Source of the DNA: a virus | Lineage: Duplodnaviria > Heunggongvirae > Uroviricota > Caudoviricetes | Direction: 5' to 3' (one strand) | IMG/VR virus record: IMGVR_UViG_2923339551_000004 | Length of the DNA: 60,308 bases | Shown here: piece by piece, positions 3,241 through 52,876 of the stretch | Position numbering within the stretch: position 1 is the first letter of the stretch | Layout: the number at the start of each line of letters is the position of its first letter | Notes under the pieces: model-generated | Told to the model about the DNA's origin: nothing | Seen by the model: only the letters and a program-made list of their open reading frames with translations | Database searches by the model: none | Program-made: the position numbers and the translations under genes

Positions 3241-3822
3241 TTACCCTATAGGTGCTACTGGCCATTCAATATCCGGTGCAGTTGTTGTATTAACACGGTT
3301 CAGCAACACCCGATACTTCTTCCAGGCTTCCAGCAACGAGATTTCTTCCTCCGTTGCGATTTCCAGATCTACAGCATCCTGAAGTGGCGCAATATGCTCA
3401 CTGGCTACCTGCATCAGGCTGTTTTTTGTTTCTTCTGCCTCCCGGATCCGGAACAGTTTTTCTGCTTCCGTATCCTTCACCCAGGCTGTGCCGTTCCACT
3501 TCTGAAACTCCCCTTCCGGCGATAACCAGGTAACATTTTCCGCTAACGGACCGAGTTCAGAAATAAATAACGCGTCGCCGGAAGCCACGTCATAGACCGT
3601 TTTACCCCGATGGTCTTCAACGAGATGCCACGATGCCTCATCACTGTTGAAAACAGCCACAAAGCCAGCCGGAATATCTGGCGGTGCAATATCGGTACTG
3701 TTTGCTGGCAGACCTGTATGAGGCGGAATATATGCGTCACCTTCACCAATAAATTCATTAGTTCCGGCCAGCAGATTATAAATTGTTATGGTCCGTGGTT
3801 GTTCACTCATTCTGAATGCCAT
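3241..3822 (-). CDS. tfa: tail fiber assembly protein Tfa
   Basis: 193 aa immediately downstream of stf; Tfa-family sequence. Confidence 0.85.
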
Positions 3823-19767: not shown

Positions 19768-20557
19768 TTACGCCAGTTGTACGGACACGAACTCATCAGG
19801 GTCAGCCAGCAGCATCAGCGGTGCTGACTGAATCATGGTGAACTCACGCGCCGGATCGCCGGTGGTCACCCAGTTTTTCGGGTAACGGGCAGAGGCGTTA
19901 ATGCCTTCGCGCTGTGCGTCCGCATCCTGAATGCAGCCATAGGTGCGCAGACCGCGTGCATGAGTGTTACCCAGCACCATCGTGTTGTCCGGCAGGAAGT
20001 TCTTTTTGACGCCGTTTTCCACGTACTGTCCGGAATACACGACGATGGCCACATCGCCATACATCCCCTTATAGGACACCGCTTTACCCAGGTCTTTCAC
20101 CGCTGTCTCCAGCTCGGAATGAGAGCCGCGACGGGTATCCAGCTTCTCCTTGACGGCGTTGAAGGAACGGAACAGCGCCCAGCCTTTCGGATCAAACACG
20201 ATGATATTCACCACGCCGCTGGCGTTCAGCGCGTAGGCTTCGATATCGTCGGTCGGGTCATACGTGGACTTGTCACGCTTGCTCCACTCCGTGCCGCCGG
20301 ACTGCGTGATGTTGTTCGCCGCACTGCGGCCCATATCCACCTCAACCGGATCGAAGGCTTCACCGGTCATGGTGTATTTGCCCTTGAGCACGGCAGAAAC
20401 TGCCTGCATCTCTTCGACCTGAGCAATGGCCAGCTCTTCGTCACGCATGTTCTGCAGGATGATGCGACGGCGGCGGTAAGCCGGGTCCGCCAGATTCTGC
20501 GGATCTTCATCCGGCAGGCGACGCAGGGTCATCTGCGGATTCACTTCATGCTTGGGT
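19768..20557 (-). pseudogene. E: major capsid protein E, C-terminal fragment (codons ~83 to end) separated from its 5' part by the satellite insertion
   Basis: Translation ...PKHEVNPQMTLRRLPDEDPQNLADPAYRRRR... to ...EFVSVQLA matches lambda E from residue ~80; in-frame stop immediately upstream at the junction. Confidence 0.9.
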
Positions 20558-20712
20558 TACATGAGTCAATCCCGAAAGAACTATTTGATTTCACTTAGCT
20601 TTGTGGTTTATATATCTACGCAACTCCTATCACTGCAATACTTTCTGCAATACAGATATGTGTAGTGAGGACTTGTCTAAAAACCATATTCACGAAGAAA
20701 AAGGATGACACG

Positions 20713-21876
20713 ATGCAACCAGAAGATTATGAAGAAAAGCAATACGAGGATGAGCCAGAATCCTATCCAATTGATGAGTTTCAACTTACTACTACGCCCA
20801 ATGATTTTAATATAATCACAATTATAAGTTTTATTAAATCAAAAGTTTTTAAAATCCCTAACTTTCAAAGGCATTATGTTTGGGATATCAAACGAGCATC
20901 AAAACTCATTGAATCTCTTTTAATAGGCCTTCCTATACCTCAAATATTTTTATATGAACAAGATAAAAATGAATTTTTAGTGATAGATGGTCAGCAGAGA
21001 TTAATGACCCTTTATTACTTTGTAAATGGTGTATTCCCTAGAAAAGAGAAACGTTCTGAACTGAGAAAAATCTTTGAAGATAATGGAAACATTCCAGAAA
21101 ACATTCTTCACAATGATGAATACTTCACAAAGTTCAACCTAAAACTTGATGGTCTATCAGACACCCAAAAAAACAAGTTTAATGGGAAAAACTATGAAAC
21201 ATTAAACGAATTTCAAACCACTTTAAATCTGGCAACCATACGAAATATGGTAATCAAACCGGTTGCACAAGATTCGGAAGATGGTGCAATGTTTGAAATA
21301 TTTAACCGCCTAAATAGTGGGGGAATGAACCTTTCTCCTCAAGAAATTCGTATGAGTTTATATCACTCAGACTTTCTTTCAAATCTTGTTTCATTGAATG
21401 AAAACAAGACATGGAGAAAAATTCTTTCAAAAAATGTTGTTGACATGCGATTGAGTGATATTGAAGCGATATTGCGCACATTTGCTATGTCCCTTTTTAC
21501 ATCTCAATACAAAAGCTCAGTTAGCGGTTTTTTGAACAATTTCTCAAATTATGCAAAAAACTACGACACTAAAGACATAATTTTATTTAGTAATATATGG
21601 AATGAATTTATGGATAGTGTTGATGGAATTGATGAAATCAATTTCAGAACTGGTGGGAATCGTATGAGTATAACTTTATTTGAGTCAATTTTTTATGCTG
21701 CAACTTATGACTCATTTAAAGATAAAGATCTAAAAATAAGACAAGTGACGGTGAATTACATCGATAAGCTTAAAAATGATCCTGAATTTCTGACATTTAG
21801 TACTGATAAAACAACAAGAAGAGAGCATGTAATTGGACGTCTAGAACGTGCAAGAACAATTTTGGAGGGAATGTAA
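20713..21876 (+). CDS. DUF262 (ParB-like nuclease/NTPase fold, GmrSD N-terminal-domain-like) protein
   Basis: Motif FLVIDGQQRLMTLYYF (DGQQR signature of DUF262); AT-rich; start at ATG 20713 with RBS aaggatga (track ORF begins 20665). Confidence 0.7.
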   Translation: MQPEDYEEKQYEDEPESYPIDEFQLTTTPNDFNIITIISFIKSKVFKIPNFQRHYVWDIKRASKLIESLLIGLPIPQIFLYEQDKNEFLVIDGQQRLMTLYYFVNGVFPRKEKRSELRKIFEDNGNIPENILHNDEYFTKFNLKLDGLSDTQKNKFNGKNYETLNEFQTTLNLATIRNMVIKPVAQDSEDGAMFEIFNRLNSGGMNLSPQEIRMSLYHSDFLSNLVSLNENKTWRKILSKNVVDMRLSDIEAILRTFAMSLFTSQYKSSVSGFLNNFSNYAKNYDTKDIILFSNIWNEFMDSVDGIDEINFRTGGNRMSITLFESIFYAATYDSFKDKDLKIRQVTVNYIDKLKNDPEFLTFSTDKTTRREHVIGRLERARTILEGM

Positions 21877-21880
21877 AATA

Positions 21881-22429
21881 ATGGAGGATATGGGATATAC
21901 TTCTATTGAAAGTATGTTTAATAACTATAAGTGTTATTATGATTTTCTTCTAACTCATAATGAGATTAGTTTTGCTAATGATTACAAATCACAATTTTCA
22001 AAAGTAATGCTATTAGCATGTGCTAGCTATTTTGAAACTTTAGTTGTAACTAAGATACATTGTATGCTTAACCCAAGCCAATGTAATCTTACACACGATT
22101 TTATCGATAATAAGGCCCTAACCAGGCAGTATCATACACTCTTTGATTGGAAAAAAAGGAATGCAAACCAGTTTTTTTCCTTTTTTGGCCCAAAATTTAA
22201 AGAGTTTATGATTGAGAAGGTAAAATCAAGCACAGAGTTGACCAAGTCTATCTCTGATTTTATGGAAATCGGAGAGCTAAGAAATAAATTAGCACATAAT
22301 AATTATGCTACTTTTGTATTAGAAAGCACAGCTGAAGAGATTTATAATAAATTTTTAAATGCACATTCATTTGTCTCTCAACTAGATACGTTCAGTACAC
22401 AGTTTAGAGAGCAAATTGGTGAACAGTAA
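21881..22429 (+). CDS. hypothetical protein, possible HEPN-like partner of the DUF262 gene
   Basis: Start ATG 21881 preceded by ggaggga, 5 nt after the DUF262 stop; C-terminal motif ELRNKLAHNNY fits the Rx4H HEPN pattern; motif-level evidence only. Confidence 0.45.
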   Translation: MEDMGYTSIESMFNNYKCYYDFLLTHNEISFANDYKSQFSKVMLLACASYFETLVVTKIHCMLNPSQCNLTHDFIDNKALTRQYHTLFDWKKRNANQFFSFFGPKFKEFMIEKVKSSTELTKSISDFMEIGELRNKLAHNNYATFVLESTAEEIYNKFLNAHSFVSQLDTFSTQFREQIGEQ

Positions 22430-22466
22430 TAGTTTATCTCCAGCAAAAAAATAACTTGCAAATAAT

Positions 22467-22493
22467 AAAAGCGGTCGCGTGACCGCTTTTTTC
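22467..22493. terminator. bidirectional intrinsic terminator between convergent genes
   Basis: aaaagcggtcgcgtgaccgctttttt: hairpin flanked by an A-run and a T-run. Confidence 0.7.
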
Positions 22494-22687
22494 TATTTAT
22501 CATTGCTATTTTCCTTTATTATTTCAGCAATTGACATAACTAAGGCGTCTGCTTTATTTCTAGTCCTATCAAACATATCTCTAATTACATCAATATAATA
22601 ATGTTCCTCAAAAATATTTACGTATGACAAAAGTATTGCACAACTCTTGCCCAAAATGTCAGCCAGTTGATCTTTGTTGACTTCCAT
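22493..22687 (-). CDS. small ORF with a Nu1-like N-terminus (first ~15 aa) fused to unrelated AT-rich sequence
   Basis: MEVNKDQLADILGKS... versus helper Nu1 MEVNKKQLADIFGAS...; sits next to the satellite cos. Confidence 0.4.
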   Translation of the reverse strand: MEVNKDQLADILGKSCAILLSYVNIFEEHYYIDVIRDMFDRTRNKADALVMSIAEIIKENSNDK

Positions 22688-22699
22688 TGTTCATTCCAC

Positions 22700-22920
22700 G
22701 GACAAAAACAGAGAAAGGAAACGACAGAGGCCAAAATGCCCGTTTTCAGCGCCTGTCATTTCCTTTCTTTTCAGGGGGTATTTTAAATAAAAACATAAAG
22801 TTACGGCGAAGAAGAACGGAAATGCCTTAAACCGGAAAATTTCCATAAATAGAGAAAAACTGCGCGCCTGACGCCCCGTAGCCTGTCAGATCGCCGGAAA
22901 GGACCCGCCAGCCAGAGCGG
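22700..22920 (-). other. satellite cos region: lambda-like terminase-binding segment with a divergent cosN
   Basis: ~85-90% identity by eye to helper cos 38060..38290 over the terminase-binding segment; the cosN-equivalent 12-mer (22865..22876, cgcctgacgccc) differs from the helper (aggtcgccgccc) at 5 positions. Confidence 0.75.
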
Positions 22921-22932
22921 GCCCTAATTTCA

Positions 22933-23316
22933 TCAACCAATCAGCTTATAGCGACCATCCCGTGCATTGCGGCGTACACGCTCAATCTTGAGGCATAGCG
23001 CCGCATCTGGCTTTTTTGGGACAGGTACGCGGCAATATTCAGAAGCGCGAGGAATATTATTTATCCAGTCGATCACTTCACTTAAATACCAGGCCTTACG
23101 CCCTTCCGTAACCTGCACACGCTCCGGGAACTCTCCACTAGCCTCAAGGTTTAGCAGTGTACGCCGACTCAGGGTTGTAATTTCCATCACCTGATTCATA
23201 TCAACAAGGCGCTCGCTTAAACACATTTTGTCAGCGATAGCTTTTAATTCCTCTACAGCTGGATTCGGGTACATCATTTCGGCAATTGGCTTAAGGTCAT
23301 TGTAATCATTCTGCAT
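22933..23316 (-). CDS. AlpA-like HTH DNA-binding protein
   Basis: Central segment MEITTLSRRTLLNLEASGEFPERVQVTEGRKAWYLSEVIDWI resembles AlpA/Xis-type HTH; start uncertain. Confidence 0.55.
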   Translation of the reverse strand: MQNDYNDLKPIAEMMYPNPAVEELKAIADKMCLSERLVDMNQVMEITTLSRRTLLNLEASGEFPERVQVTEGRKAWYLSEVIDWINNIPRASEYCRVPVPKKPDAALCLKIERVRRNARDGRYKLIG

Positions 23317-23327
23317 TGTATCCCCCT

Positions 23328-23669
23328 TTACACACGAGCCAGCGGCTGAACAGAAATACCTGAGCCAACAAACGCGGCAACCTTTGCCGACAGTTCTCTT
23401 ACAGACTCAGGCCAGTTCAGAGCATCAACATTTAAAACACCTGTCTTATAAACCTGTGCCTGTGTTTTTTTCGCTGTGTCGATTTGTACAGCGGAAACAT
23501 AAACCGCTTTGCCTGCGCTCGTTCCATCCCATACCACTAGCGCACCAGTTGCATCTTCCTGCATCAGTGGCGTAAACGCAGGTATTACCCCTTTATTGGC
23601 TGAAAATATCCCCAGCGTAGTAACCAGTGCTTCAGTGCCAGACATGAGTTCAGTGTAATGAGTAGCCAT
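23328..23669 (-). CDS. head decoration protein D homolog (divergent), satellite-encoded
   Basis: 113 aa; recognisable similarity to lambda D (VVWDGTSAGKAV versus [13 protein letters not shown]), far more diverged than the helper D at 32164..32496. Confidence 0.7.
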   Translation of the reverse strand: MATHYTELMSGTEALVTTLGIFSANKGVIPAFTPLMQEDATGALVVWDGTSAGKAVYVSAVQIDTAKKTQAQVYKTGVLNVDALNWPESVRELSAKVAAFVGSGISVQPLARV

Positions 23670-23678
23670 TGCTCCCCC

Positions 23679-24719
23679 TTAGCCAATGCGAACGGTAACA
23701 AAACGATTGATGCGGGCCGGTATTGGCTGTGGTGCTGAATGTGTCTGCACATATTCAATAGCCGGATCACCAGGCACAATATAGTTTTTCGGTGCAAGTT
23801 CGGCTTTAGTCAGCCCCATTCGGATTAGCTCCGGATCCTGAATACCGCCATAGGCGACAATCCCCTGAAGAGCCGTATTGCCAAGCACCATCAAATCAGG
23901 ATCAAGGAAATGTTTTTCAGTTCCGTCCTCGTCGGTATAACGCCCGCTGTATACAACAATCGCAACATCGCCCATATACCCTTTAAAACTCACCGAATCA
24001 CCAAGGTCTTTAAGGGCCGTTTCCAGTTCGGAATTAGAACCACGACGGGTATCCAGAGCCTCTTTTATCGCTCTGAATGAACGGTATTTCTTCCATACAT
24101 TACCGCCCATAATGATGATATTAGTGACGCCCTCACTAAATTCTGCGTAGCTCTCAATATCATCATTTGGATCAAAAGTTTCTTTATCCTTACCTGACCA
24201 CTCAGCACCGCCAGACTGAGTGATGATATTTTGTGGTTTAATATTCCAGTCCAGCTCATAACGTTCAATACCATCGCCCTCAATGATATTTTTCCCCGTT
24301 GTGATTGCCTGAACGGCAAGCCATTCAATACGTGCACGAATAGCTTTAGCCTGATTTACAATCGCCTGTTTAACTTTAATATTACGCGCTCCAAAAGCAT
24401 TGTATTGCTCAGGTGATACACCAGCAGGGCGCACAGCTAACTTATTTGGATCAATGCTGCTTTTCGGCTTCATATAGCCTGGACGAATTGTTTTTGATTC
24501 GTACCCTTCGTCACGTGAAACTTTACTACCCACCATAGGAGAACAAAACGCTGCAATTGGGATATTTGGATCGTCGATTGTATCAAGAATAATATCGCGC
24601 GATTCAAACATTACCGAGCGAGTAAAAAACAAACTGGTAAACAACGCATTTAGTTGTTTTTGTACATCTACAGCATTAACCACCTGTACAAGCTGGGTAG
24701 GCGAATATAAATCAACCAT
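23679..24719 (-). CDS. major capsid protein E homolog (divergent), satellite-encoded
   Basis: About half the positions shared with lambda E over the C-terminal part (TRRGSNSELETALKDLG, GDVAIVVYSG); start at ATG 24719 with aagagg RBS (track ORF begins 24893). Confidence 0.8.
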   Translation of the reverse strand: MVDLYSPTQLVQVVNAVDVQKQLNALFTSLFFTRSVMFESRDIILDTIDDPNIPIAAFCSPMVGSKVSRDEGYESKTIRPGYMKPKSSIDPNKLAVRPAGVSPEQYNAFGARNIKVKQAIVNQAKAIRARIEWLAVQAITTGKNIIEGDGIERYELDWNIKPQNIITQSGGAEWSGKDKETFDPNDDIESYAEFSEGVTNIIIMGGNVWKKYRSFRAIKEALDTRRGSNSELETALKDLGDSVSFKGYMGDVAIVVYSGRYTDEDGTEKHFLDPDLMVLGNTALQGIVAYGGIQDPELIRMGLTKAELAPKNYIVPGDPAIEYVQTHSAPQPIPARINRFVTVRIG

Positions 24720-24936
24720 ACGCATCCTCTTTGCATTCATTAAAAATAATTGTGGATATATGCTATCACCGATATTTGTCATGCGAATACATGCAACCGA
24801 GTGCAATGTTGTATAAAGTTTTGGGATGACAACTTCAGCACGGATAATTAGTGTTAATATCTTCACTCCCTTTGGTCTGGATTTATGTAGCATGCCGGAA
24901 AATTTATTTTTTTCCGGCCTTTTTTATTGGCAATAT

Positions 24937-25386
24937 TTAAAGCGGAATATCATCTCCCCATTGCTCATTATCTCCCACTGGTGGATGGCTTCCTTGCTGA
25001 TCTGCCTGTTGTTTTGCTCTGTTCAGTGCGTCAGTAGCCTGCCCCTGTTGGCCTTTTTTGCCGCCCGGTCGCACCGATCGCGCACTGATTACGCTGTCTG
25101 CGATAACCTGCCAGCCCTGCCGCGTTTCACCGTTCTGTCCAGTCCACTGGCTCACCTGCATATTACCCGCCACGCTCAGGAGTTCGCCTTTGTGATGCTT
25201 TGCCAGCGTGTCGGCTTGTCTGCCAAACGCCAGCACAGATAACCACATCGTCGCCGTTCCGTCATCTGCCTGGCTGCATGGCAAAGATACCGCCATCCAT
25301 GCCAGTGTCATGGGTGTTCCCTTGCTGGTATGTTTTACCTGTGGGTCGTCCACCAGCCGCCCGTAAGCTGCTATTTGCGCCGTCAT
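24937..25386 (-). CDS. single-stranded DNA-binding protein-like (SSB-like)
   Basis: 149 aa; OB-fold-like N-terminus, Gly/Gln-rich tail and terminal DDIPL resembling the SSB C-terminal DDDIPF. Confidence 0.6.
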   Translation of the reverse strand: MTAQIAAYGRLVDDPQVKHTSKGTPMTLAWMAVSLPCSQADDGTATMWLSVLAFGRQADTLAKHHKGELLSVAGNMQVSQWTGQNGETRQGWQVIADSVISARSVRPGGKKGQQGQATDALNRAKQQADQQGSHPPVGDNEQWGDDIPL

Positions 25387-25397
25387 GCTGCCTGCTC

Positions 25398-25640
25398 TCA
25401 GGACTTAATATTGATGGTTGTCACTTCCTCCGCTTCGGCAATCTCCCGTTCGGTCAGCGTGGCAAAGTTTGCAGCCGCCGTTGTCATGAATGCGCTTATC
25501 AGTTCGGGATGTGCTTTCGCGTATCCTTCCCCGGCGTTGCGGTCTATTGCCTTAATCGCCACCCTTAGCCAGTGTTCAGCCATATCAAGGGCGCGGTAAT
25601 GTGGCTTTATATGTTTGTTCAGTTTTCCTGATGTGTGCAT
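25398..25640 (-). CDS. hypothetical protein
   Basis: 80 aa ORF between the origin and the SSB-like gene. Confidence 0.4.
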   Translation of the reverse strand: MHTSGKLNKHIKPHYRALDMAEHWLRVAIKAIDRNAGEGYAKAHPELISAFMTTAAANFATLTEREIAEAEEVTTINIKS

Positions 25641-25685
25641 TTTTATTTTTACCCCCTCGTTTAAAAAGTTTTTTGTGCACCACCA

Positions 25686-25918
25686 CCTTGTCTACCTTGT
25701 CTACCTGATTAGTTATCAGGCCAGTAATGGCGCGGGTTTCAGGGAGGTAGACAGCCCCAAATAGCTGTCTACCTCATCTCTACCCGTCTCCTTACCTGTC
25801 TACAAAAATGGGTAGATAAGGTAGATAACAGGTAGACAGTGAAAAATAGTTATCTACCTGCATTAATACATTGAAATAAAAGTATTTTATTTCAGTCAGG
25901 TAGACAAGGTAGATAACC
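25686..25918. repeat. iteron array, putative satellite replication origin
   Basis: At least 11 copies of GGTAGA(C/T)A / T(A/G)TCTACC in both orientations, irregularly spaced, immediately 3' of the primase/helicase gene. Confidence 0.75.
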
Positions 25919-25929
25919 ATTGCCATTTT

Positions 25930-27681
25930 TTATAAAAACGCATCGCAATCATCAGTAGTCGTTGCGTTGGTCTGCGTGACTCCCTTAACTTTTCGAGTAA
26001 TATATTCATATCCGTAAACTTTCGCCGCTGACCTCATAGCCTTTCCGAACTCATTCACGCTCAAACATTTCCCCTTTCCTGTATATGCCATGAAGGCCAT
26101 ATAGACACGGTAAAGGCTGTTTCTGGTCGTGTACTTCACGGTGTCACCACCACCGCCCATCATTAGCCCACGAGCTTCCTCCAGAAACTCCAGCGCCGCG
26201 CAAAGCTCAACAACCGGATCCGTTTGCTGCTTTATTGCCAGAGCTTCATCACCGTCACGCTGTTCCAGTAATAAAGCCCGTGCCTTTTCAGGGTCAGCAA
26301 AATTAGCCAGCAAGCGGCGGATAATTACGGGGATTTCTGCCGCTATCTTTTCCGGTAATTCCTTGTCTTTTTCGTCCTCCCTTACAATGTTGTCGAACCG
26401 GAAAATCACCCGACGGCGTGACACACCTCCGGCCCGTTCGGTAAAGATCATCGGGTCGTTATTGGTTGCCAGTACCACCGCCCTTATTATCGTCGTGAAT
26501 CGCTTCTCATATTTCGGGTTAATTTCAACGGGATCGCCTCCCGTGATTTTCTTGATGCCCGTGCCTTCCCCCGTATATTTCGGCTGATCGGCAAGGACGA
26601 TAAGACGACTCCCGACAACCTGCGCACGCCCTCCTGCATCATCGAGTGATGTCATCTCTGCGCTTACGGTGTTCTGTTTGCCAGCAAGCAGGGTGGCAAT
26701 ATGGGTAAATGTACTCTTACCGCTTCCCCCGTCTCCGGTGGCCTCAATGAACATCTGCCAGTCGTACCGGTTCGCCATAATCATGTACAGCGCGGCACAT
26801 ATACGCATCATCTTGCGCGGGTCTTTTCCGGCTGCGTGCTCAAGCCATTTATGAAAGTTTGGCGCGTTATCGCGGATGTTCTCCCCTGGTGCTGGTGGCG
26901 TGTACTCAATGCCGTTGTGCGTGGTGATCCAGTTCTCCGGCGTGTGCGGGGAAAATTCCCCCGTTTTCAGGTCAAGCGCACCATTGGCGAACGGCAGCAA
27001 ATCGCCGGACGGCTCGCCCATTGGTTCGGCAATAACTTTTAACGCTTCAACGGCGTTATTGATCACGCGTTTGCTGAAAGTGGCCCTGTGCTCTGAATAG
27101 ATCGCCACCATTTCGCGGCTCAGCTCCATTGTGCTGATCGGACACCATACCCCGCCGCGCCATACGTGAACGATTTCACTTTCCGGATGCACACAAACGC
27201 CATCAAAGCGCTCGGCAAGCAGCTGCGCGCGCTCACTGTCTGCCATCTGTGAAAGTTGCGCCTTTTGCTTCGTCGGAAGATTAAGCACCAGGCTTTCCCC
27301 ACGCTCGCATTCCTCTTTGAGTCGCGGCAACTGGTCGGATAAATCCACTGGGCTGGTGTCAGTAATCCCCGCGTATTCGTGTACGGTCTTCACTCCAGCC
27401 ACAGCCAGTAACGTAACAATCTGCGTCATGCTGTGCTCTGTGATATGTCCTGCGCGGTAAACACGCACACACTGACGATCTTCATCAATGATCCGGTAAT
27501 CGGTGATGTTTTTCAGTTGCTCATCAGCCAACACGACAGGCGGCACATCGTCGGCGGCAATATGTTTACCCGCCCATTCCTGCCACTCTTTCGCATGGCT
27601 CCACGCATCACTACCTGCAAAGATGATTATCTCTGTCAGTCTGTCGCGTGGCTGTTTTTTTAAGTTCGGTGCCAGTTTCAT
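25930..27681 (-). CDS. replication protein: primase/helicase (P4 alpha / D5-like SF3 helicase family)
   Basis: 583 aa; Walker A EATGDGGSGKSTF; sits next to the iterons. Confidence 0.75.
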   Translation of the reverse strand: MKLAPNLKKQPRDRLTEIIIFAGSDAWSHAKEWQEWAGKHIAADDVPPVVLADEQLKNITDYRIIDEDRQCVRVYRAGHITEHSMTQIVTLLAVAGVKTVHEYAGITDTSPVDLSDQLPRLKEECERGESLVLNLPTKQKAQLSQMADSERAQLLAERFDGVCVHPESEIVHVWRGGVWCPISTMELSREMVAIYSEHRATFSKRVINNAVEALKVIAEPMGEPSGDLLPFANGALDLKTGEFSPHTPENWITTHNGIEYTPPAPGENIRDNAPNFHKWLEHAAGKDPRKMMRICAALYMIMANRYDWQMFIEATGDGGSGKSTFTHIATLLAGKQNTVSAEMTSLDDAGGRAQVVGSRLIVLADQPKYTGEGTGIKKITGGDPVEINPKYEKRFTTIIRAVVLATNNDPMIFTERAGGVSRRRVIFRFDNIVREDEKDKELPEKIAAEIPVIIRRLLANFADPEKARALLLEQRDGDEALAIKQQTDPVVELCAALEFLEEARGLMMGGGGDTVKYTTRNSLYRVYMAFMAYTGKGKCLSVNEFGKAMRSAAKVYGYEYITRKVKGVTQTNATTTDDCDAFL

Positions 27682-27977
27682 TTTTTGCCCCTGAATGCGT
27701 TAATCATGCTTTTCATTTTCTGGATGTTTCCCCGCGCTTTTTCCCTGCTGATGGGCTTACTACGGGGTGCGGCATATACCAGGGAAAAATCACGCCGGAA
27801 CTGATAAACAGGCATCACGCAGTCATAGCTATACCCCTCACGACGGTAAGTGATGCGCCGTTCTGCCACGCCTTTAATCGTTACCGTGCCGCCGTATTTA
27901 TCGCGGTAAATATCGCCGTTCATAAATTCAGGCCGAGCGGGGCCGCTGGCAATAAAGCCAGAATTTTTCATTTCCAT
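27678..27977 (-). CDS. hypothetical protein (replication-operon small ORF)
   Basis: 99 aa; stop overlaps the primase start (27678..27681). Confidence 0.45.
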   Translation of the reverse strand: MEMKNSGFIASGPARPEFMNGDIYRDKYGGTVTIKGVAERRITYRREGYSYDCVMPVYQFRRDFSLVYAAPRSKPISREKARGNIQKMKSMINAFRGKK

Positions 27978-27994
27978 ATTATTTATTCCTCGAC

Positions 27995-28216
27995 TTAACT
28001 CGACTTATTTGATAGCAGGGCACTATTTATTGCGTCATTGAGTTTTTCTGCTGCTTCATCAATAAGTGACAACAGGCCATAAGCAATATTTGCATCTTCA
28101 TTGTCATTTATGCAATCAAGCCACATATTTAATATTGCTTTTGCTGAATTATTTAAAGTTAATGAACTTTCTGCACATGCTAACAATTTAAAAAAGACTT
28201 CCCGTTCTGTATTCAT
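27995..28216 (-). CDS. hypothetical protein
   Basis: 73 aa ORF, AT-rich. Confidence 0.35.
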   Translation of the reverse strand: MNTEREVFFKLLACAESSLTLNNSAKAILNMWLDCINDNEDANIAYGLLSLIDEAAEKLNDAINSALLSNKSS

Positions 28217-28408
28217 TTAATCCCCCACCAGCTTACTTTCTTCCTCAATCAAAAAACTAGCGACACTTCCCGAAAGACGCGCCAGTAGGCTCGCCAGTGC
28301 GGATATATCAGCATCTGTAATTTTGTTCGGGTATACCTCAAGAAGGCGGCAAATAATTTCTGTCTGGTGCGCACGTTCAGCGGCTTCGTGTAATGTGATT
28401 TCCTGCAT
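28217..28408 (-). CDS. hypothetical protein
   Basis: 63 aa ORF abutting neighbours. Confidence 0.35.
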   Translation of the reverse strand: MQEITLHEAAERAHQTEIICRLLEVYPNKITDADISALASLLARLSGSVASFLIEEESKLVGD

Positions 28409-28593
28409 TAATGCACCTCTTTTAATTCATACACTGCTGAAATAATGACTTGTGATAAGCCATATTCTGATGATTCGCTTCTCACCGCAGCAATAGCCGT
28501 CTGAACATTAACAGCCTTCACATTCTGAGCGATACCAATTGTGTGGCCTATTGGGTTAACAGCTCGGGCAAATACACGGAAGGTTTTAAGCAT
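28408..28593 (-). CDS. hypothetical protein
   Basis: 61 aa ORF abutting neighbours. Confidence 0.35.
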   Translation of the reverse strand: MLKTFRVFARAVNPIGHTIGIAQNVKAVNVQTAIAAVRSESSEYGLSQVIISAVYELKEVH

Positions 28594-28787
28594 GACTCAC
28601 TCCCTGGCGGATTTTTGCAGCGAATACAGCAACACAACCGGACGGGCAACGGCTACGCGCTTCGCGTTCCGTCCAGGCGGTTACGTGGATGATTTGAGAT
28701 TCTCCGGCACTCAGTGCCAGAAAACGCCACACAAAGGCCGTTTGTGTGTGTACAAGGTGTGGTATATGATTTACAGCAACCATAACG
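28587..28787 (-). CDS. hypothetical protein, first gene of the leftward satellite operon
   Basis: 66 aa from ATG 28787 with aggag RBS; below the 60-aa track cutoff as a separate ORF because it is embedded in the spurious 28586..29317 frame. Confidence 0.4.
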
Positions 28788-28973
28788 GCTCCTAGTTTAC
28801 GTTGTTGGTTAGACGCCCCGTATGTGTTCCCAGCACTGCGGGGCGTTGCTCTTTGTATTTCAACAATCCTTTCGGTGTGTTTCATGTTATGAGCGCATGA
28901 AACACACGTCAAGGCTTTTTGTATTTCTTTTTTTGTGTATACTGAAACACACCGATGATTAGGAGTTTCAGAA

Positions 28974-29279
28974 ATGGCAACGGCTAACAAAAACGCAAAA
29001 TCACAACTGACAACTGTCAGAGTCCCACTAGATGTTATGCAAGGGATGGAATCCGTTAAGCTGGACGGTGAAAGCAATGCCGGATTTATCGTAACCGCCA
29101 TGCGCGGTGAAATCGCCCGCCGCCAGGCAGAAGGAAGCGGAGAAAATCCCCTCGTGTCTTCACTGGATGCCTTAGCTAAGGTCGAACAAATCGGCATCAA
29201 GGCAGCGGAGGAAATCGGGCAACTCGTAGCCGTCGCTCGTGAAGAACTCCAGCGGCGTAAAGCCAAAGAATCTGAATAA
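28974..29279 (+). CDS. hypothetical protein, divergently transcribed from the replication operon (possible regulator)
   Basis: 101 aa; RBS aggag upstream; divergent arrangement typical of a satellite control region. Confidence 0.45.
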   Translation: MATANKNAKSQLTTVRVPLDVMQGMESVKLDGESNAGFIVTAMRGEIARRQAEGSGENPLVSSLDALAKVEQIGIKAAEEIGQLVAVAREELQRRKAKESE

Positions 29280-29629
29280 TTAGTATCAGCGCCGTGATGT
29301 GAGTAACTACGGCGCATTGCTATGTAAATACTGGCAATAAACAGAAAAGGTAGTTCTACTCCGAATAATTTTATCTGACACTACTCCTGAACTAACATGC
29401 GCTTATCTTACAGGATATAAATATAAATCCATAAAATCACGATTAAATAAAGTCGCTCCAAACATAAACCACACCCAACGCTTAACAAGATAGCAACAAA
29501 CAGGTAAATAACTTGCAGAAATATTTATCGCAAGGATTATCATTATTAATGACAAATCACTTTACCAAGTCATTCCCCTCTCTTATCATAAAGAGAAAGT
29601 AATAAATAAGTTAAGGGAGTTAGAATGCT

Positions 29630-30166
29630 ATGAATCTAAAAAAAATAGCCACAAACACAAAAAACAAGATAACAGAAACATTTAATAAACTTATATTAGA
29701 GGCATCTAAAACCCCCACGCAAGATGAAATTAAAATACTTGAGAGAAGGAGTAAGAAGTTTAATTACTCCTTTTTCTCATACGCAGTCACAGGAGCTATA
29801 ATAGTTTTTTGCTCTCAACCATTAATTAAATACGCAAACCCAATACTTATTTTATTGAGTGGTCTGTTACTGTCTATCATCATTATCATTCTCAGAATGA
29901 TTTATATTTCACAAGCGAATGCATCATGGACAACCAAAAAACGCTCACATGTACTAGTTCATTTTCTTTCTGCATGTTTCATAGCATCAACATTGACGTT
30001 GCTATATCAGGCTTACGATAATAACATCACACACAAATTGTACTGTAAAAATATACAACAACTTATTGAAAAAAGGATAGAAACAGAAAAAAACATCAGC
30101 ATATTCAGTGGGATGCAATGCACCCCGGTATATGATTACTCTTTATTTGGATTTAATCTCTTATAA
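29630..30166 (+). CDS. AT-rich predicted membrane protein
   Basis: 178 aa; two strongly hydrophobic segments (AIIVFCSQPLI, ILILLSGLLLSIIIIILRMIYI); very low GC; aagggag RBS. Confidence 0.5.
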   Translation: MNLKKIATNTKNKITETFNKLILEASKTPTQDEIKILERRSKKFNYSFFSYAVTGAIIVFCSQPLIKYANPILILLSGLLLSIIIIILRMIYISQANASWTTKKRSHVLVHFLSACFIASTLTLLYQAYDNNITHKLYCKNIQQLIEKRIETEKNISIFSGMQCTPVYDYSLFGFNLL

Positions 30167-30235
30167 AGAATGTTATTACTGATTTGAGTACAAATTCTCA
30201 AATCAGTAATTCATAATATTTTATTCTGAGATAAT

Positions 30236-30472
30236 TTAAACTACCCACTCACCTCGAATCCATGCCTGCACTTCTGAAAGACGATATGCAACAGCAGTGG
30301 AACCAATCTTGATCCGCTTAGGAAATTTTCCTTCCTTCTCCAGCTTCCAGCGTGTGCTGTTCGCAAGAGTGGTTAGCTCCCGACATTCTTTCTCACGGAT
30401 CATTCGGTCAATGTTAGGAATGTACTCCAGACCCTTTTTATCAACAATTGCCATTTTTTTCATGTTAACCAA
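30236..30472 (-). CDS. alpA: AlpA-family transcriptional regulator / excisionase-like
   Basis: 78 aa, ...ELTTLANSTRWKLEKEGKFPKRIKIGSTAVAYRLSEVQAWI; directly downstream of the integrase. Confidence 0.7.
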   Translation of the reverse strand: MVNMKKMAIVDKKGLEYIPNIDRMIREKECRELTTLANSTRWKLEKEGKFPKRIKIGSTAVAYRLSEVQAWIRGEWVV

Positions 30473-31700
30473 CCTTTTGTTTGAGGATTGTCACTTTTGA
30501 ATCAGCACCTGCGATGCTATTGAGATATGTAGTCCAGAGTTCCAGAGCATCCAGTTTTTTAGCCATAAACTTACTCCGGTTGTAAACACCTGCCACGCCA
30601 GGTAGCGCATGGCCTAACAGTTGTTCTACTACATAAAATTCAACACCGAGATCACTTAGATGAGTAGATAGCGTTCTTCTAAGGTCGTGTAGTGACCATT
30701 GTTTTTCATGGCCCAAACGTTTACCGATTTTCCCCCCAATCTTGCTTACGCTTTCTCTAATTCGCAGACTTCCCAGCACATAACCAGTATGTTTTGTCTC
30801 TTCGTGAACATCCGTTACCCACTGTCGTAGAATTTCAGGTACTGGTCTGACGATTTCAACACCAGTTTTTGAGTGATCTTTTGGTACAGTCCAAACCCAA
30901 CTTTCGAGATCCCATTCGCTCCATTCTGATAATCGGGCTTCACTCATTCGACATCCAAATACTGTACAAAGCACAAACATTTTTCGCGTGTATTCAGACA
31001 TTAGTTTTAAATCAGGCTCGACAAAAATTGCCTTCCAGAGCTGGCCGAGTTCGGCTTCATCCAGAACCCGATCCCGCTTACCTGCAATCTGCCCCACATC
31101 ACTCATGCGCAAATCCTTTAAAGCATCACACGTCGCGTACTGGCGTACCCGACAAAAACGAAGAGCTAATTTAGTGTCAGAAAAAACATACGCCGCCATA
31201 ACTGGTGCATTACGTTTAATTCGGTCAAAACAGTCCAGCCATTCATATAGGTGAGTGTCATTTACGGGCAAATGACCGATATAGGGAAAGATATGCTTTC
31301 GAAATCTGCCAAGCGTTACAGCATGAGTTTTACGACGCACCTTACAGTAATTTTCATACCAGTAATTTAGTGCATCCTCCACTGTAACCGGCTTTAAGCG
31401 TTCTTCAGCCTGAATCTTAATCTGGATACGCGGATCACGTTTGTCAGCCAACCAACCACGGCACTCGTCGCGCTTTTCCCTTGCCTGTTTGAGTGACATA
31501 TCAGGATATTTACCCAACGTTAGCCAGACCGGAGCAGCCCGGCCACCTGCTAACCTGTAGAAGAAAACAAAGCTCACAGCCCCTTTAGTACTCACACGAA
31601 TAGAAAGCCCCTTTCCATCAGCAATGGTGATCTGCTTTTCTCTGGGTTTCCCCAGATATCCTTTAAGCGCTTTGTCGCTCAGTTTGTTCTCGCCAGCCAT
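30465..31700 (-). CDS. int: tyrosine recombinase / integrase (P4-type), satellite
   Basis: C-terminal catalytic region with HDLRRT and LLGH...Y motifs; start placed at MAGENKL (track ORF extends to 31751); adjacent to the att repeat. Confidence 0.85.
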   Translation of the reverse strand: MAGENKLSDKALKGYLGKPREKQITIADGKGLSIRVSTKGAVSFVFFYRLAGGRAAPVWLTLGKYPDMSLKQAREKRDECRGWLADKRDPRIQIKIQAEERLKPVTVEDALNYWYENYCKVRRKTHAVTLGRFRKHIFPYIGHLPVNDTHLYEWLDCFDRIKRNAPVMAAYVFSDTKLALRFCRVRQYATCDALKDLRMSDVGQIAGKRDRVLDEAELGQLWKAIFVEPDLKLMSEYTRKMFVLCTVFGCRMSEARLSEWSEWDLESWVWTVPKDHSKTGVEIVRPVPEILRQWVTDVHEETKHTGYVLGSLRIRESVSKIGGKIGKRLGHEKQWSLHDLRRTLSTHLSDLGVEFYVVEQLLGHALPGVAGVYNRSKFMAKKLDALELWTTYLNSIAGADSKVTILKQKVG

Positions 31701-31832
31701 TTTTAGCCCCAAAAAGCAATACAAGCTGCAATACAGAGATGATTGCAACACACAGATAACGAGGAAAATTCAGTGAAAGCACCAGATAAACTTATTCTTT
31801 ATTATCAAAAGATTAAGTGTAAAAACCAGCAA

Positions 31833-32108
31833 CTACACGAAAGCCTCAGAAAGCCATGCTAAGTGCTTGGGTTTGACATATCCCGGCGTAAATTCAGAGG
31901 TGGAGCCGCCACGGGAACGGATAACCTCACCGGAAACAATCGGCGAAACGTACAGCGCCATGTTTACCAGTCCCGGAATTTGTGAGAGATAGACTTTCTC
32001 CGTAGTGAAGGGATAGCTCTCACGGAAAAAGAGACGCAGAAACAGCGGATCAAACTTAAATTTCTGCTCATTTGCCGCCAGCAGCTGGGCGGTTGTGTAC
32101 ATCGACAT
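31833..32108 (-). pseudogene. E: major capsid protein E, N-terminal fragment (82 aa) fused to 9 satellite-encoded codons
   Basis: MSMYTTAQLLAANEQKFKFDPLFLRLFF...GYVKPKH then LAWLSEAFV and stop; breakpoint at the KPKH codons. Confidence 0.9.
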
Positions 32109-50789: not shown

Positions 50790-50930
50790 TTAAAAGACAG
50801 GCATACTAATAAACACTGCACTGTGTATTTATTCCAACGAGTGAATACACGGAGCAATGTCGCTCGTAACTAAACAGGAGCCGACTTGTTCTGATTATTG
50901 GAAATCTTCTTTGCCCTCCTGGATTTGCCC

Positions 50931-51836
50931 CTATATTTCCAGACATCTGTTATCACTTAACCCATTACAAGCCCGCTGCCGCAGATATTCCCGTGGCGAG
51001 CGATAACCCAGCGCACTATGCGGATGCCATTCGTTATAATGCTCGAACGCCTCTGCAAGGTTCTTTGCTGCCGTTAACCCGTCTGGTTTGGGCATGATAC
51101 TGATGTAGTCACGCTTTATCGTTTTCACGAAGCTCTCTGCGATTCCGTTACTCTCCGGACTCCGCACCGCCGTGTTCTTCGGTTCAAGTCCCAACATCCG
51201 GGCGAACTGGCGTGTTTCATTAGCCCGGTAGCATGAACCATTATCCGTCAGCCACTCCACTGGAGACGACGGAAGATCGTTGCCGAAGCGGCGTTCCACC
51301 GCTCCCAGCATGACGTCCTGTACTGTTTCACTGTTGAAGCCGCCGGTAGTGACCGCCCAGTGCAGTGCCTCACGATCACAGCAGTCCAGCGCGAACGTGA
51401 CACGCAGTCTCTCTCCGTTATCACAGCAGAACTCGAACCCGTCAGAGCACCATCGCTGATTGCTTTCTTTCACGGCCACTCTGCCTGTATGTGCCCGTTT
51501 CGATGGCGGTACAGCAGGTTTTCGCTCAAGCAACAGCGCATTCTGGCGCATGATCCGGTAAACACGTTTGGCATTGATCGCAGGCATACCATCAAGTTCT
51601 GCCTGTCTGCGAAGCAGCGCCCATACCCGACGATAACCATACGTGGGCAGCTCTCCGATAACATGGTGTATACGGAGAAGCACATCCGTATCATCAGTGT
51701 GACGACTGCGGCGGCCATCCATCCAGTCATCGGTTCGTCTGAGAATGACGTGCAACTGCGCACGCGACACCCGGAGACAACGGCTGACTAAGCTTACTCC
51801 CCATCCCCGGGCAATAAGGGCGCGTGCGCTATCCAC
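50931..51836 (-). CDS. insD: IS2 transposase InsD (OrfB)
   Basis: 301 aa, DDE transposase. Confidence 0.9.
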
Positions 51837-52159
51837 TTTTTTGCCCGTCCATATTCAACGGCTTCTTTGAGGAGTTCATTTTCCATCGTTTTCTTGCCGA
51901 GCAGGCGCTGGAGTTCTTTAATCTGCTTCATGGCGGCAGCAAGTTCAGAGGCAGGAACAACCTGTTCTCCGGCGGCGACAGCAGTAAGACTTCCTTCCTG
52001 GTATTGCTTACGCCAGAGAAATAACTGGCTGGCTGCTACACCATGTTGCCGGGCAACGAGGGAGACCGTCATCCCCGGTTCAAAGCTCTGCTGAACAATT
52101 GCGATCTTTTCCTGTGTGGTACGCCGTCTGCGTTTCTCCGGTCCTAAGACATCAATCAT
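51794..52159 (-). CDS. insC: IS2 InsC (OrfA)
   Basis: [47 protein letters not shown]... Confidence 0.9.
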
Positions 52160-52294
52160 CTGCTCTCCAATGACTAGTCTAAAAACTAGTATTAAGACTA
52201 TCACTTAAATAAGTGATACTGGTTGTCTGGAGATTCAGGGGGCCAGTCTACCTCCAGTGTGAGGGCGATTTTTTATCTATGAGGATATGAATAG

Positions 52295-52663: not shown

Positions 52664-52736
52664 GTGCGGCTTTACCGCATACCAATAACGCTTCACTCGA
52701 GGCGTTTTTCGTTATGTATAAATAAGGAGCACACCA

Positions 52737-52876
52737 TGCAATATGCCATTGCAGGGTGGCCTGTTGCTGGCTGCCCTTCCGAATCTTTACTTGAACGAAT
52801 CACCCGTAAATTACGTGACGGATGGAAACGCCTTATCGACATACTTAATCAGCCAGGAGTACCCAAAAATGGATAA
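52737..52876 (+). CDS. cIII: CIII (FtsH inhibitor)
   Basis: [46 protein letters not shown]. Confidence 0.9.

Follow-up and report, generated by a model that had tools for sequence, protein, structure and literature searches.

This report concerns a 60,308-nucleotide stretch of viral DNA (Caudoviricetes; IMG/VR record IMGVR_UViG_2923339551_000004), referred to as a whole as the window, and within it a small A+T rich cassette carried by a satellite, a phage-inducible chromosomal island (PICI) that is embedded in a lambdoid prophage. The cassette contains one gene, an open reading frame (ORF) of 178 codons, which RefSeq labels WP_001049528.1, hypothetical protein; a literature search on that accession found nothing. 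An earlier note on this DNA had singled out the gene as one for a small membrane protein of a kind that often acts in superinfection exclusion or abortive infection. We describe the cassette as cargo of a variable slot in the satellite and, tentatively, its product as a candidate phage-exclusion protein.

The cassette and its gene

The features of the cassette are as follows.

29325-30230, + strand: whole cargo cassette, moron-like, made of leader, ORF and terminator; 906 bp, G+C fraction (GC) 0.31, bounds from alignment breaks against sister elements
29325-29629, + strand: A+T rich leader, 305 bp, with candidate promoter and ribosome-binding site
29561-29589, + strand: candidate sigma-70 promoter, TTTACC-17-TATCAT, matching the consensus at 9/12 positions
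29613-29619, + strand: ribosome-binding site AAGGGAG, 10 nt before the ATG
29630-30166, + strand: 178-aa ORF (WP_001049528.1), predicted three-helix inner-membrane protein with the N-terminus inside and the C-terminus outside (N-in/C-out)
30175-30210, no strand assigned: probable terminator hairpin separating the ORF from the convergent alpA; inverted repeat of 14 bp without mismatch, loop of 8 nt

The bounds of the cassette follow from DNA alignments: homology with elements that have the upstream YlcI-like gene but lack the ORF ends at about 29322-29325, and homology with elements that have alpA and int resumes at about 30231-30245. In relatives without the cassette, the YlcI-like gene and alpA are separated by about 350 bp that hold just a 57-aa ORF or a Bro-N gene. 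The gene thus lies where the earlier note had placed it, between the satellite regulatory genes (the YlcI-like gene, 28974-29279) on one side and the convergent alpA (30236-30463) and int (30465-31700) on the other. The A+T richness that had been pointed out is equally evident: the cassette is distinct in composition from its flanks (GC 0.48 and 0.45), and the GC of the ORF is 0.315, even over the three codon positions, against a window mean of 0.49. The ribosome-binding site described as good is also present, but the proposed start at 29290 is in non-coding DNA, since the cassette begins at about 29325 and the ORF only at 29630.

The leader is found only with the ORF, both being present in the same 67 genomes; it folds just marginally more stably than shuffled sequences (z = -1.9). 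The hairpin downstream of the ORF folds with -22.3 kcal/mol (z = -5.5), and a U-rich run comes next on the + strand. The hairpin is likely to be the intrinsic terminator of the ORF and may work in both directions. Distinct composition, a site between genes that are neighbours in relatives, and a terminator of its own are among the marks of a moron, and the cassette has these three; a promoter active in the lysogen is another, for which the cassette offers the candidate at 29561-29589. A scan of 28300-30500 against Rfam returned no RNA family, so no C4/isrK-type immunity RNA was found there. The leader also holds a hydrophobic antisense ORF of 50 aa (29403-29555, - strand, TTG start), which was considered as a small toxin (type I toxin-like) and was rejected as non-coding because stop codons break it in three variant sequences.

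The 178-aa ORF is a real, conserved gene. Stops make up about 7.8% of random triplets at its composition, so the chance of 178 codons staying open is about 5e-7. Between E. coli alleles, the ratio of non-synonymous to synonymous substitution rates (dN/dS) is 0.03-0.15 outside residues 82-116, and distant homologues keep the transmembrane (TM) segments and a set of invariant residues.

The protein and its relatives

A 19-residue Kyte-Doolittle scan found hydrophobic segments at about residues 47-66, 72-95 and 108-129. The earlier note had counted two; all three are helical in the AlphaFold model, and every full-length homologue retains all of them. That model, built from a 17-sequence alignment, has a mean predicted local distance difference test score (pLDDT) of 84.7 and places helices at 3-26, 31-66, 71-94, 100-147 and 152-161; a model from the single sequence was poor (pLDDT 62.6). 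The 46-residue N-terminus has 11 lysines or arginines, the loop between TM2 and TM3 carries positive charges and, in all family members but one, zero acidic residues, and the C-terminal domain (130-178) is charge-neutral. These charge counts lead to a predicted N-in/C-out topology, in which the N-terminus and the TM2-TM3 loop would be cytoplasmic, and the QPLxKYANP turn, which joins TM1 to TM2, and the C-terminal domain of about 49 residues would be periplasmic. The invariant cysteine pair would then also be periplasmic, and C139 and C164 are probably joined there in a disulfide.

Across the family alignment P71, C139, Q143, F159 and C164 are invariant, and the C-terminal domain bears the motif HDxYCxxLQ...EKNSxIFNNMxCR. 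Column conservation, expressed as the majority fraction, is 0.77 in the predicted periplasmic turn and 0.50 in the C-terminal domain; it is lowest in the predicted cytoplasmic parts, the N-terminus (0.26) and loop 2 (0.27). The ORF occurs as two allele groups that differ almost only in residues 82-116 (window 29873-29977). In this patch there are 18 non-synonymous codon changes to 1 synonymous (dN/dS about 1.2). It looks like a swapped (mosaic) segment, as judged from the alleles, or possibly reflects localised diversification.

The family is small. A word-indexed protein search retrieved only E. coli proteins, 88-100% identical, while HMMER over 1.84 billion cluster representatives returned 11 proteins at E <= 0.001, nine of them credible homologues with 26-36% identity. 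A profile search added a few more; in all there are about a dozen homologues at 24-36% identity, for the most part cargo of mobile elements; over the full A3 alignment the distant members are 16-33% identical to the window protein. A motif scan with a narrowed alignment found the family in just 3/185,579 species-representative genomes. The ORF was run against Pfam, PHROGs v4, NCBIfam and PADLOC-DB 2.0, and 11 or 17 family members were also taken through Pfam, PHROGs and PADLOC. The family is uncharacterised and absent from all four catalogues. NCBIfam left the ORF unmatched, and no Pfam family exceeded its gathering score, the best being DUF443 (19.2 bits vs. a cut-off of 26.2). Over 17 family members, the PHROG hits were scattered, nearly all at E >= 0.01 and each for one to three members, and the Pfam hits included no immunity family. 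These sub-threshold matches are driven by the hydrophobic segments.

The genomic contexts of the distant homologues are diverse. Two of them (32-35% identity; one from Kosakonia) occupy the same slot as the window gene in diverged capsid-E satellites (loci L030 and L031), where they lie 30-66 nt past a small gene, ribbon-helix-helix by eye, and are followed by a further unknown gene and then alpA. One homologue is an opposite-strand, moron-like insert among the head genes of a prophage. Another is in a degraded island at ssrA, beside a protein with an HNH-type Cys/His motif (by eye) and near the end of a type VI secretion cluster. One is near a pyocin S locus, and one adjoins a 200-aa tyrosine recombinase and umuDC, with Imm42 near. 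No partner gene is conserved across the homologue loci examined. The common theme is of a family of sporadic cargo, often on mobile elements.

In Pseudomonas mandelii the homologue (24% identity; L005 6303-8447) is on the same strand as a type XI retron reverse transcriptase (RT)-protease gene and 49 nt 3' of it, in an islet that also has Fic and DUF4238 genes. The homologue was considered as an accessory gene of the type XI retron, which PADLOC counts as a single gene. The adjacency is confined to this locus, being found neither in the window nor at the other loci examined, including those of other Pseudomonas homologues; the association was rejected as a coincidence because it was seen in a single locus. 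The locus with the 200-aa recombinase is represented by three independent metagenome contigs (L039, L040 and L041; 7189-8516), in which the homologue is divergent from the recombinase gene, about 210 bp away, and upstream of umuDC. The recombinase matches the FimB/FimE-type invertases in size, and a phase-variable promoter switch at this homologue is conceivable.

The satellite and its variable slot

The satellite splits the major capsid gene E of the lambdoid prophage and is co-oriented with it. Its main features, together with the two parts of the split gene, are given below.

20549-31873, - strand: helper-embedded PICI, 11.3 kb, with the 10-bp repeat TGCTTGGGTT at both junctions
31863-32108: N-terminal fragment of capsid gene E of the lambdoid helper prophage, ending ...TPGYVKPKH
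19768-20544: C-terminal fragment of the same gene, resuming NPQMTLRR
30465-31700, - strand: int, tyrosine integrase from the clade whose target is capsid gene E of prophages (Pfam, annotation, PMC10111431)
30236-30463, - strand: alpA, PICI regulator of excisionase type (Pfam Phage_AlpA, E = 3e-15), converging on the ORF
28974-29279, + strand: YlcI/YnfO-family protein, 101 aa, predicted ribbon-helix-helix (NCBIfam YlcI_YnfO_N, 62.6 bits; phrog_6522)
25930-27681: D5-type primase (Pfam D5_N, DUF5906, Pox_D5)
23679-24719: the satellite's own E-like capsid gene (PHROG major head protein)
23328-23669: the satellite's own decoration gene (annotation)

The remaining satellite genes are an icd-like gene, several small genes, a gene for a single-stranded DNA-binding protein (SSB, from PHROG) and a helix-turn-helix gene. 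The YlcI-like gene opens a rightward unit that diverges from the icd-like/primase operon, and is a core satellite gene 5' of the cargo.

The element is a published type of helper-embedded PICI, that of site E:Phage_cap_E:80, called '11capE' (Tommasini, Mageeney & Williams 2023, PMC10111431). Like that type, it is about 11.3 kb long, inserted co-oriented at the ...GYVKPKH codon region near codon 80 of a lambdoid capsid E gene, and assembled from the same parts, namely int with alpA, a variable zone, primase with SSB, and capsid and decoration genes of its own. In the published description the region after alpA is a dynamic 'Bro zone', in which Bro-N proteins and immunity RNAs are dominant. In the window the same zone has neither a Bro-N gene nor a C4/isrK RNA, and the cassette is there instead. 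A word search of the main text of that paper for 'membrane', 'exclusion' and 'cargo' returned none of the three.

Among 5426 complete E. coli genomes, int and alpA of the satellite are present in 174-178, and the ORF in 67 of those (about 38%). The slot between the small YlcI-like or HicB-like gene and alpA has at least seven different contents in elements whose int/alpA DNA is 93-100% identical. The following were found at loci of sister elements.

L049: putAbiC directly after the YlcI-like gene and in the same orientation (60 bits vs. a cut-off of 22)
L047: CAP12/Pycsar-type TIR protein (PADLOC candidate PDC-S35, 6.9e-67)
L003 and L046: DUF2971 with SWIM, the DUF2971 giving a weak PDC-S31 match
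L002: HicB-like gene, then a 241-aa unknown protein
L048: 467-aa unknown protein

Immune systems have been reported from the 5' or 3' ends of PICIs (PMC11364771), and the slot behaves like these accessory or immune hot spots. As in the PICI hot spots and in the defence hotspots of P4 and P2 (PMC9122126), it lies between conserved genes and swaps its content, putAbiC and TIR/PDC-S35 included, and the cargo is A+T rich. It differs from them in that the occupant in the window belongs to no catalogued defence family.

The small YlcI/YnfO- or HicB-like gene (window 28974-29279; L030 7719-7898; L031 7771-7956; L002 9530-9724; L049 2567-2761) is always the first of the unit that diverges from the icd-like/primase operon, with the cargo directly 3' of it. 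It looks by eye like a ribbon-helix-helix gene, and in some relatives the small gene ahead of the cargo is unannotated. It may be a regulator of satellite maintenance; its role appears to be undescribed. As to the carriers, a large share of the best-matching E. coli carrier genomes come from chickens or other birds, which could reflect lineage sampling or a niche association, and the helper prophage in the matching genome is annotated with the serum-survival gene iss.

What the protein may do

Our preferred reading, put forward tentatively, is that the ORF product is a moron-type phage-exclusion protein working on the periplasmic side of the inner membrane. The cassette would be a horizontally acquired, self-contained unit in the variable 5' accessory slot of the helper-embedded PICI. 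Expression of the ORF would occur in the quiescent state of satellite and helper prophage, driven by a promoter of the cassette or by transcription running on from the YlcI-like gene. From the periplasmic side its product would then keep incoming phages from delivering their genomes, much as in superinfection exclusion, and would so protect the composite of prophage and satellite.

This reading is suggested by the defence genes among the other occupants of the slot, by the moron anatomy of the cassette, by the place of the ORF downstream of a divergent small regulator, and by the concentration of conservation on the predicted periplasmic side. In λ, rexAB rides with cI, and the placement of the ORF resembles that arrangement. 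Inner-membrane proteins for superinfection exclusion encoded by prophage morons include HK97 gp15, P22 SieA and T4 Imm. The window ORF is similarly small, stand-alone and compositionally distinct, has its own terminator, and is carried by a temperate element beside the regulatory region; a homologue within a prophage structural module is likewise a moron, on the opposite strand, and the conserved part of the protein is the predicted periplasmic face. It differs from these proteins in matching no PHROG or Pfam family, libraries that are expected to hold HK97 gp15, P22 SieA and T4 Imm, although the three were not compared with it one by one.

A number of observations weigh against the exclusion reading. 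The protein has no sequence or fold likeness to a known exclusion, abortive-infection or defence protein in the libraries searched: neither the ORF nor the 11 family members tried matched PADLOC-DB 2.0 with the cut-off relaxed to E = 1, PHROGs v4 gave nothing at E <= 0.01 for the ORF, the PDB held no match to the family by sequence, and a fold search of the PDB returned generic helical hairpins alone, with no informative neighbour. By tblastn, no homologue was found in 50,697 deposited phage genomes (queries, the ORF and the prophage-borne homologue P0020) or in 72,556 plasmids (query, the ORF). Some homologues are chromosomal singletons without mobile-element neighbours, and several distant ones lie in ordinary islets of the chromosome, outside phages and satellites. 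The slot also houses non-defence genes such as Bro-N, and position in it is indirect evidence. The variable patch, residues 82-116, runs from the last part of TM2 through the predicted cytoplasmic loop into the first part of TM3, and does not cover the periplasmic face. The sigma-70 match at 29561-29589 is weak and is based on the consensus alone, and the topology and the disulfide are predictions. The suggestion in the earlier note that genes so placed act in exclusion or abortive infection stands as regards the placement, as the slot does act as a position for anti-phage cargo (putAbiC and TIR in sisters), but no family match or informative structural neighbour ties the protein itself to either activity.

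A bolder version of the exclusion reading is that the ORF is the first of a new family of single-gene anti-phage proteins, in which the conserved turn and the disulfide-bonded domain would block the entry of competitors, e.g., heteroimmune lambdoid phages, and which would be carried to protect the composite of satellite and helper. We consider it possible but doubtful. If there is such a family, the swapped patch in the predicted cytoplasmic loop might reflect allele exchange or escape dynamics.

The protein could instead be a membrane effector of abortive infection, similar to AbiC/AbiP or RexB, that senses infection and depolarises or permeabilises the inner membrane, so that the cell dies before phage release. 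The small multi-helix architecture would suit such an effector, and a putAbiC membrane protein (PF16872) has the same position and orientation in the sister satellite at L049, but the ORF does not match PF16872 even at E = 1, and no Abi or membrane-effector model was matched in PADLOC or Pfam. A phage trigger would be encountered in the cytoplasm, and the variable patch is predicted to lie on that side; the cytoplasmic parts are, however, the least conserved and have no recognisable sensor domain. One homologue is directly 3' of the type XI retron RT-protease, but this holds for one locus only and not for the other Pseudomonas homologues, and there is no conserved partner gene. On balance we think an abortive-infection effector unlikely. 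We would give a similarly low place to a function in lysogenic conversion or host fitness, by which the protein would be an orphan that confers immunity to a bacteriocin acting on membranes or to a contact-dependent toxin, or an envelope factor for an avian or extra-intestinal niche. The immunity proteins of pore-forming colicins are small, A+T rich inner-membrane proteins of three or four helices that act periplasmically, and the predicted topology and conservation pattern fit them; no colicin-immunity or other immunity family was matched in Pfam, however, and at no locus is a cognate toxin gene adjacent. Imm42, the pyocin S locus and the end of the type VI secretion cluster are near some homologues, but they are several genes off and not conserved as neighbours. 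The many poultry carriers and the iss annotation on the helper prophage agree with a niche function, although the poultry bias may be one of lineage sampling.

A part in the satellite life cycle, as a holin- or antiholin-like protein that times lysis or as a membrane factor acting against the helper upon induction, seems improbable. The protein is small, is encoded on a satellite with the helper lysis cassette near, and has three TM helices, as do class I holins; a cytoplasmic N-terminus of 46 residues and a periplasmic domain with a Cys pair would be atypical for holins, and the match of one family member to one PHROG holin/anti-holin family (E = 0.029) is noise. Moreover, the ORF is transcribed against the alpA-to-late direction and belongs to no late or lysis operon, it is missing from about 62% of satellites that are otherwise similar, and homologues exist outside satellites. 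Least probable is a toxin-antitoxin-like pair, in which the ORF would encode the toxin and the ribbon-helix-helix gene upstream of it the antitoxin. A small same-strand gene, ribbon-helix-helix by eye, is directly upstream both here and in L030/L031; the one in the window has a weak, sub-threshold match to Pfam PSK_trans_fac (antitoxin-type), and some of its relatives are annotated as HicB-family antitoxins. Yet the YlcI-like gene occurs without the ORF in many PICIs and ahead of unrelated cargo in others, ORF homologues occur without such an upstream partner, and in the window a 350-bp leader separates the two genes. Since either gene can be found without the other, a type II toxin-antitoxin pair of the ORF and the YlcI-like gene was rejected.

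Neither the satellite type, published as '11capE', nor the notion of immune hot spots in PICIs is new, and hot-spot cargo that is a candidate exclusion protein will not surprise the specialist. Hot spots of satellites and prophages are a productive source of new anti-phage genes, and the cassette offers a small single-gene candidate that current catalogues have overlooked, with defined bounds, two natural alleles and recurrence in the same slot of diverged satellites. Should the protein turn out to exclude phages, the few characterised entry blockers would gain a new family of membrane proteins, and helper-embedded satellites would be seen to shield their helper. Without a phage phenotype, the gene would be an ordinary uncharacterised piece of cargo.

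The satellite has a second A+T rich cargo region at its far end (20713-22429, GC about 0.30). It encodes a DUF262 protein (PADLOC NsnA, 6e-59; PD-T4-2_A, 2e-38) followed by a HEPN protein with weaker matches (CARF_HEPN, 7.7e-6; PD-T4-2_B, 2e-4), and these matches suggest a defence system of two genes, located in the 3' hot spot. At this 3' position, AbiJ-like or DUF2971 genes are found in sister elements. Elsewhere in the window, Rfam identified the λ cIII thermoregulator element (52723-52781) and an IS009 RNA (3281-3479). A copy of IS2 lies at 50920-52250; in strain MSHS 133, IS2 is at the satellite attachment junction instead.

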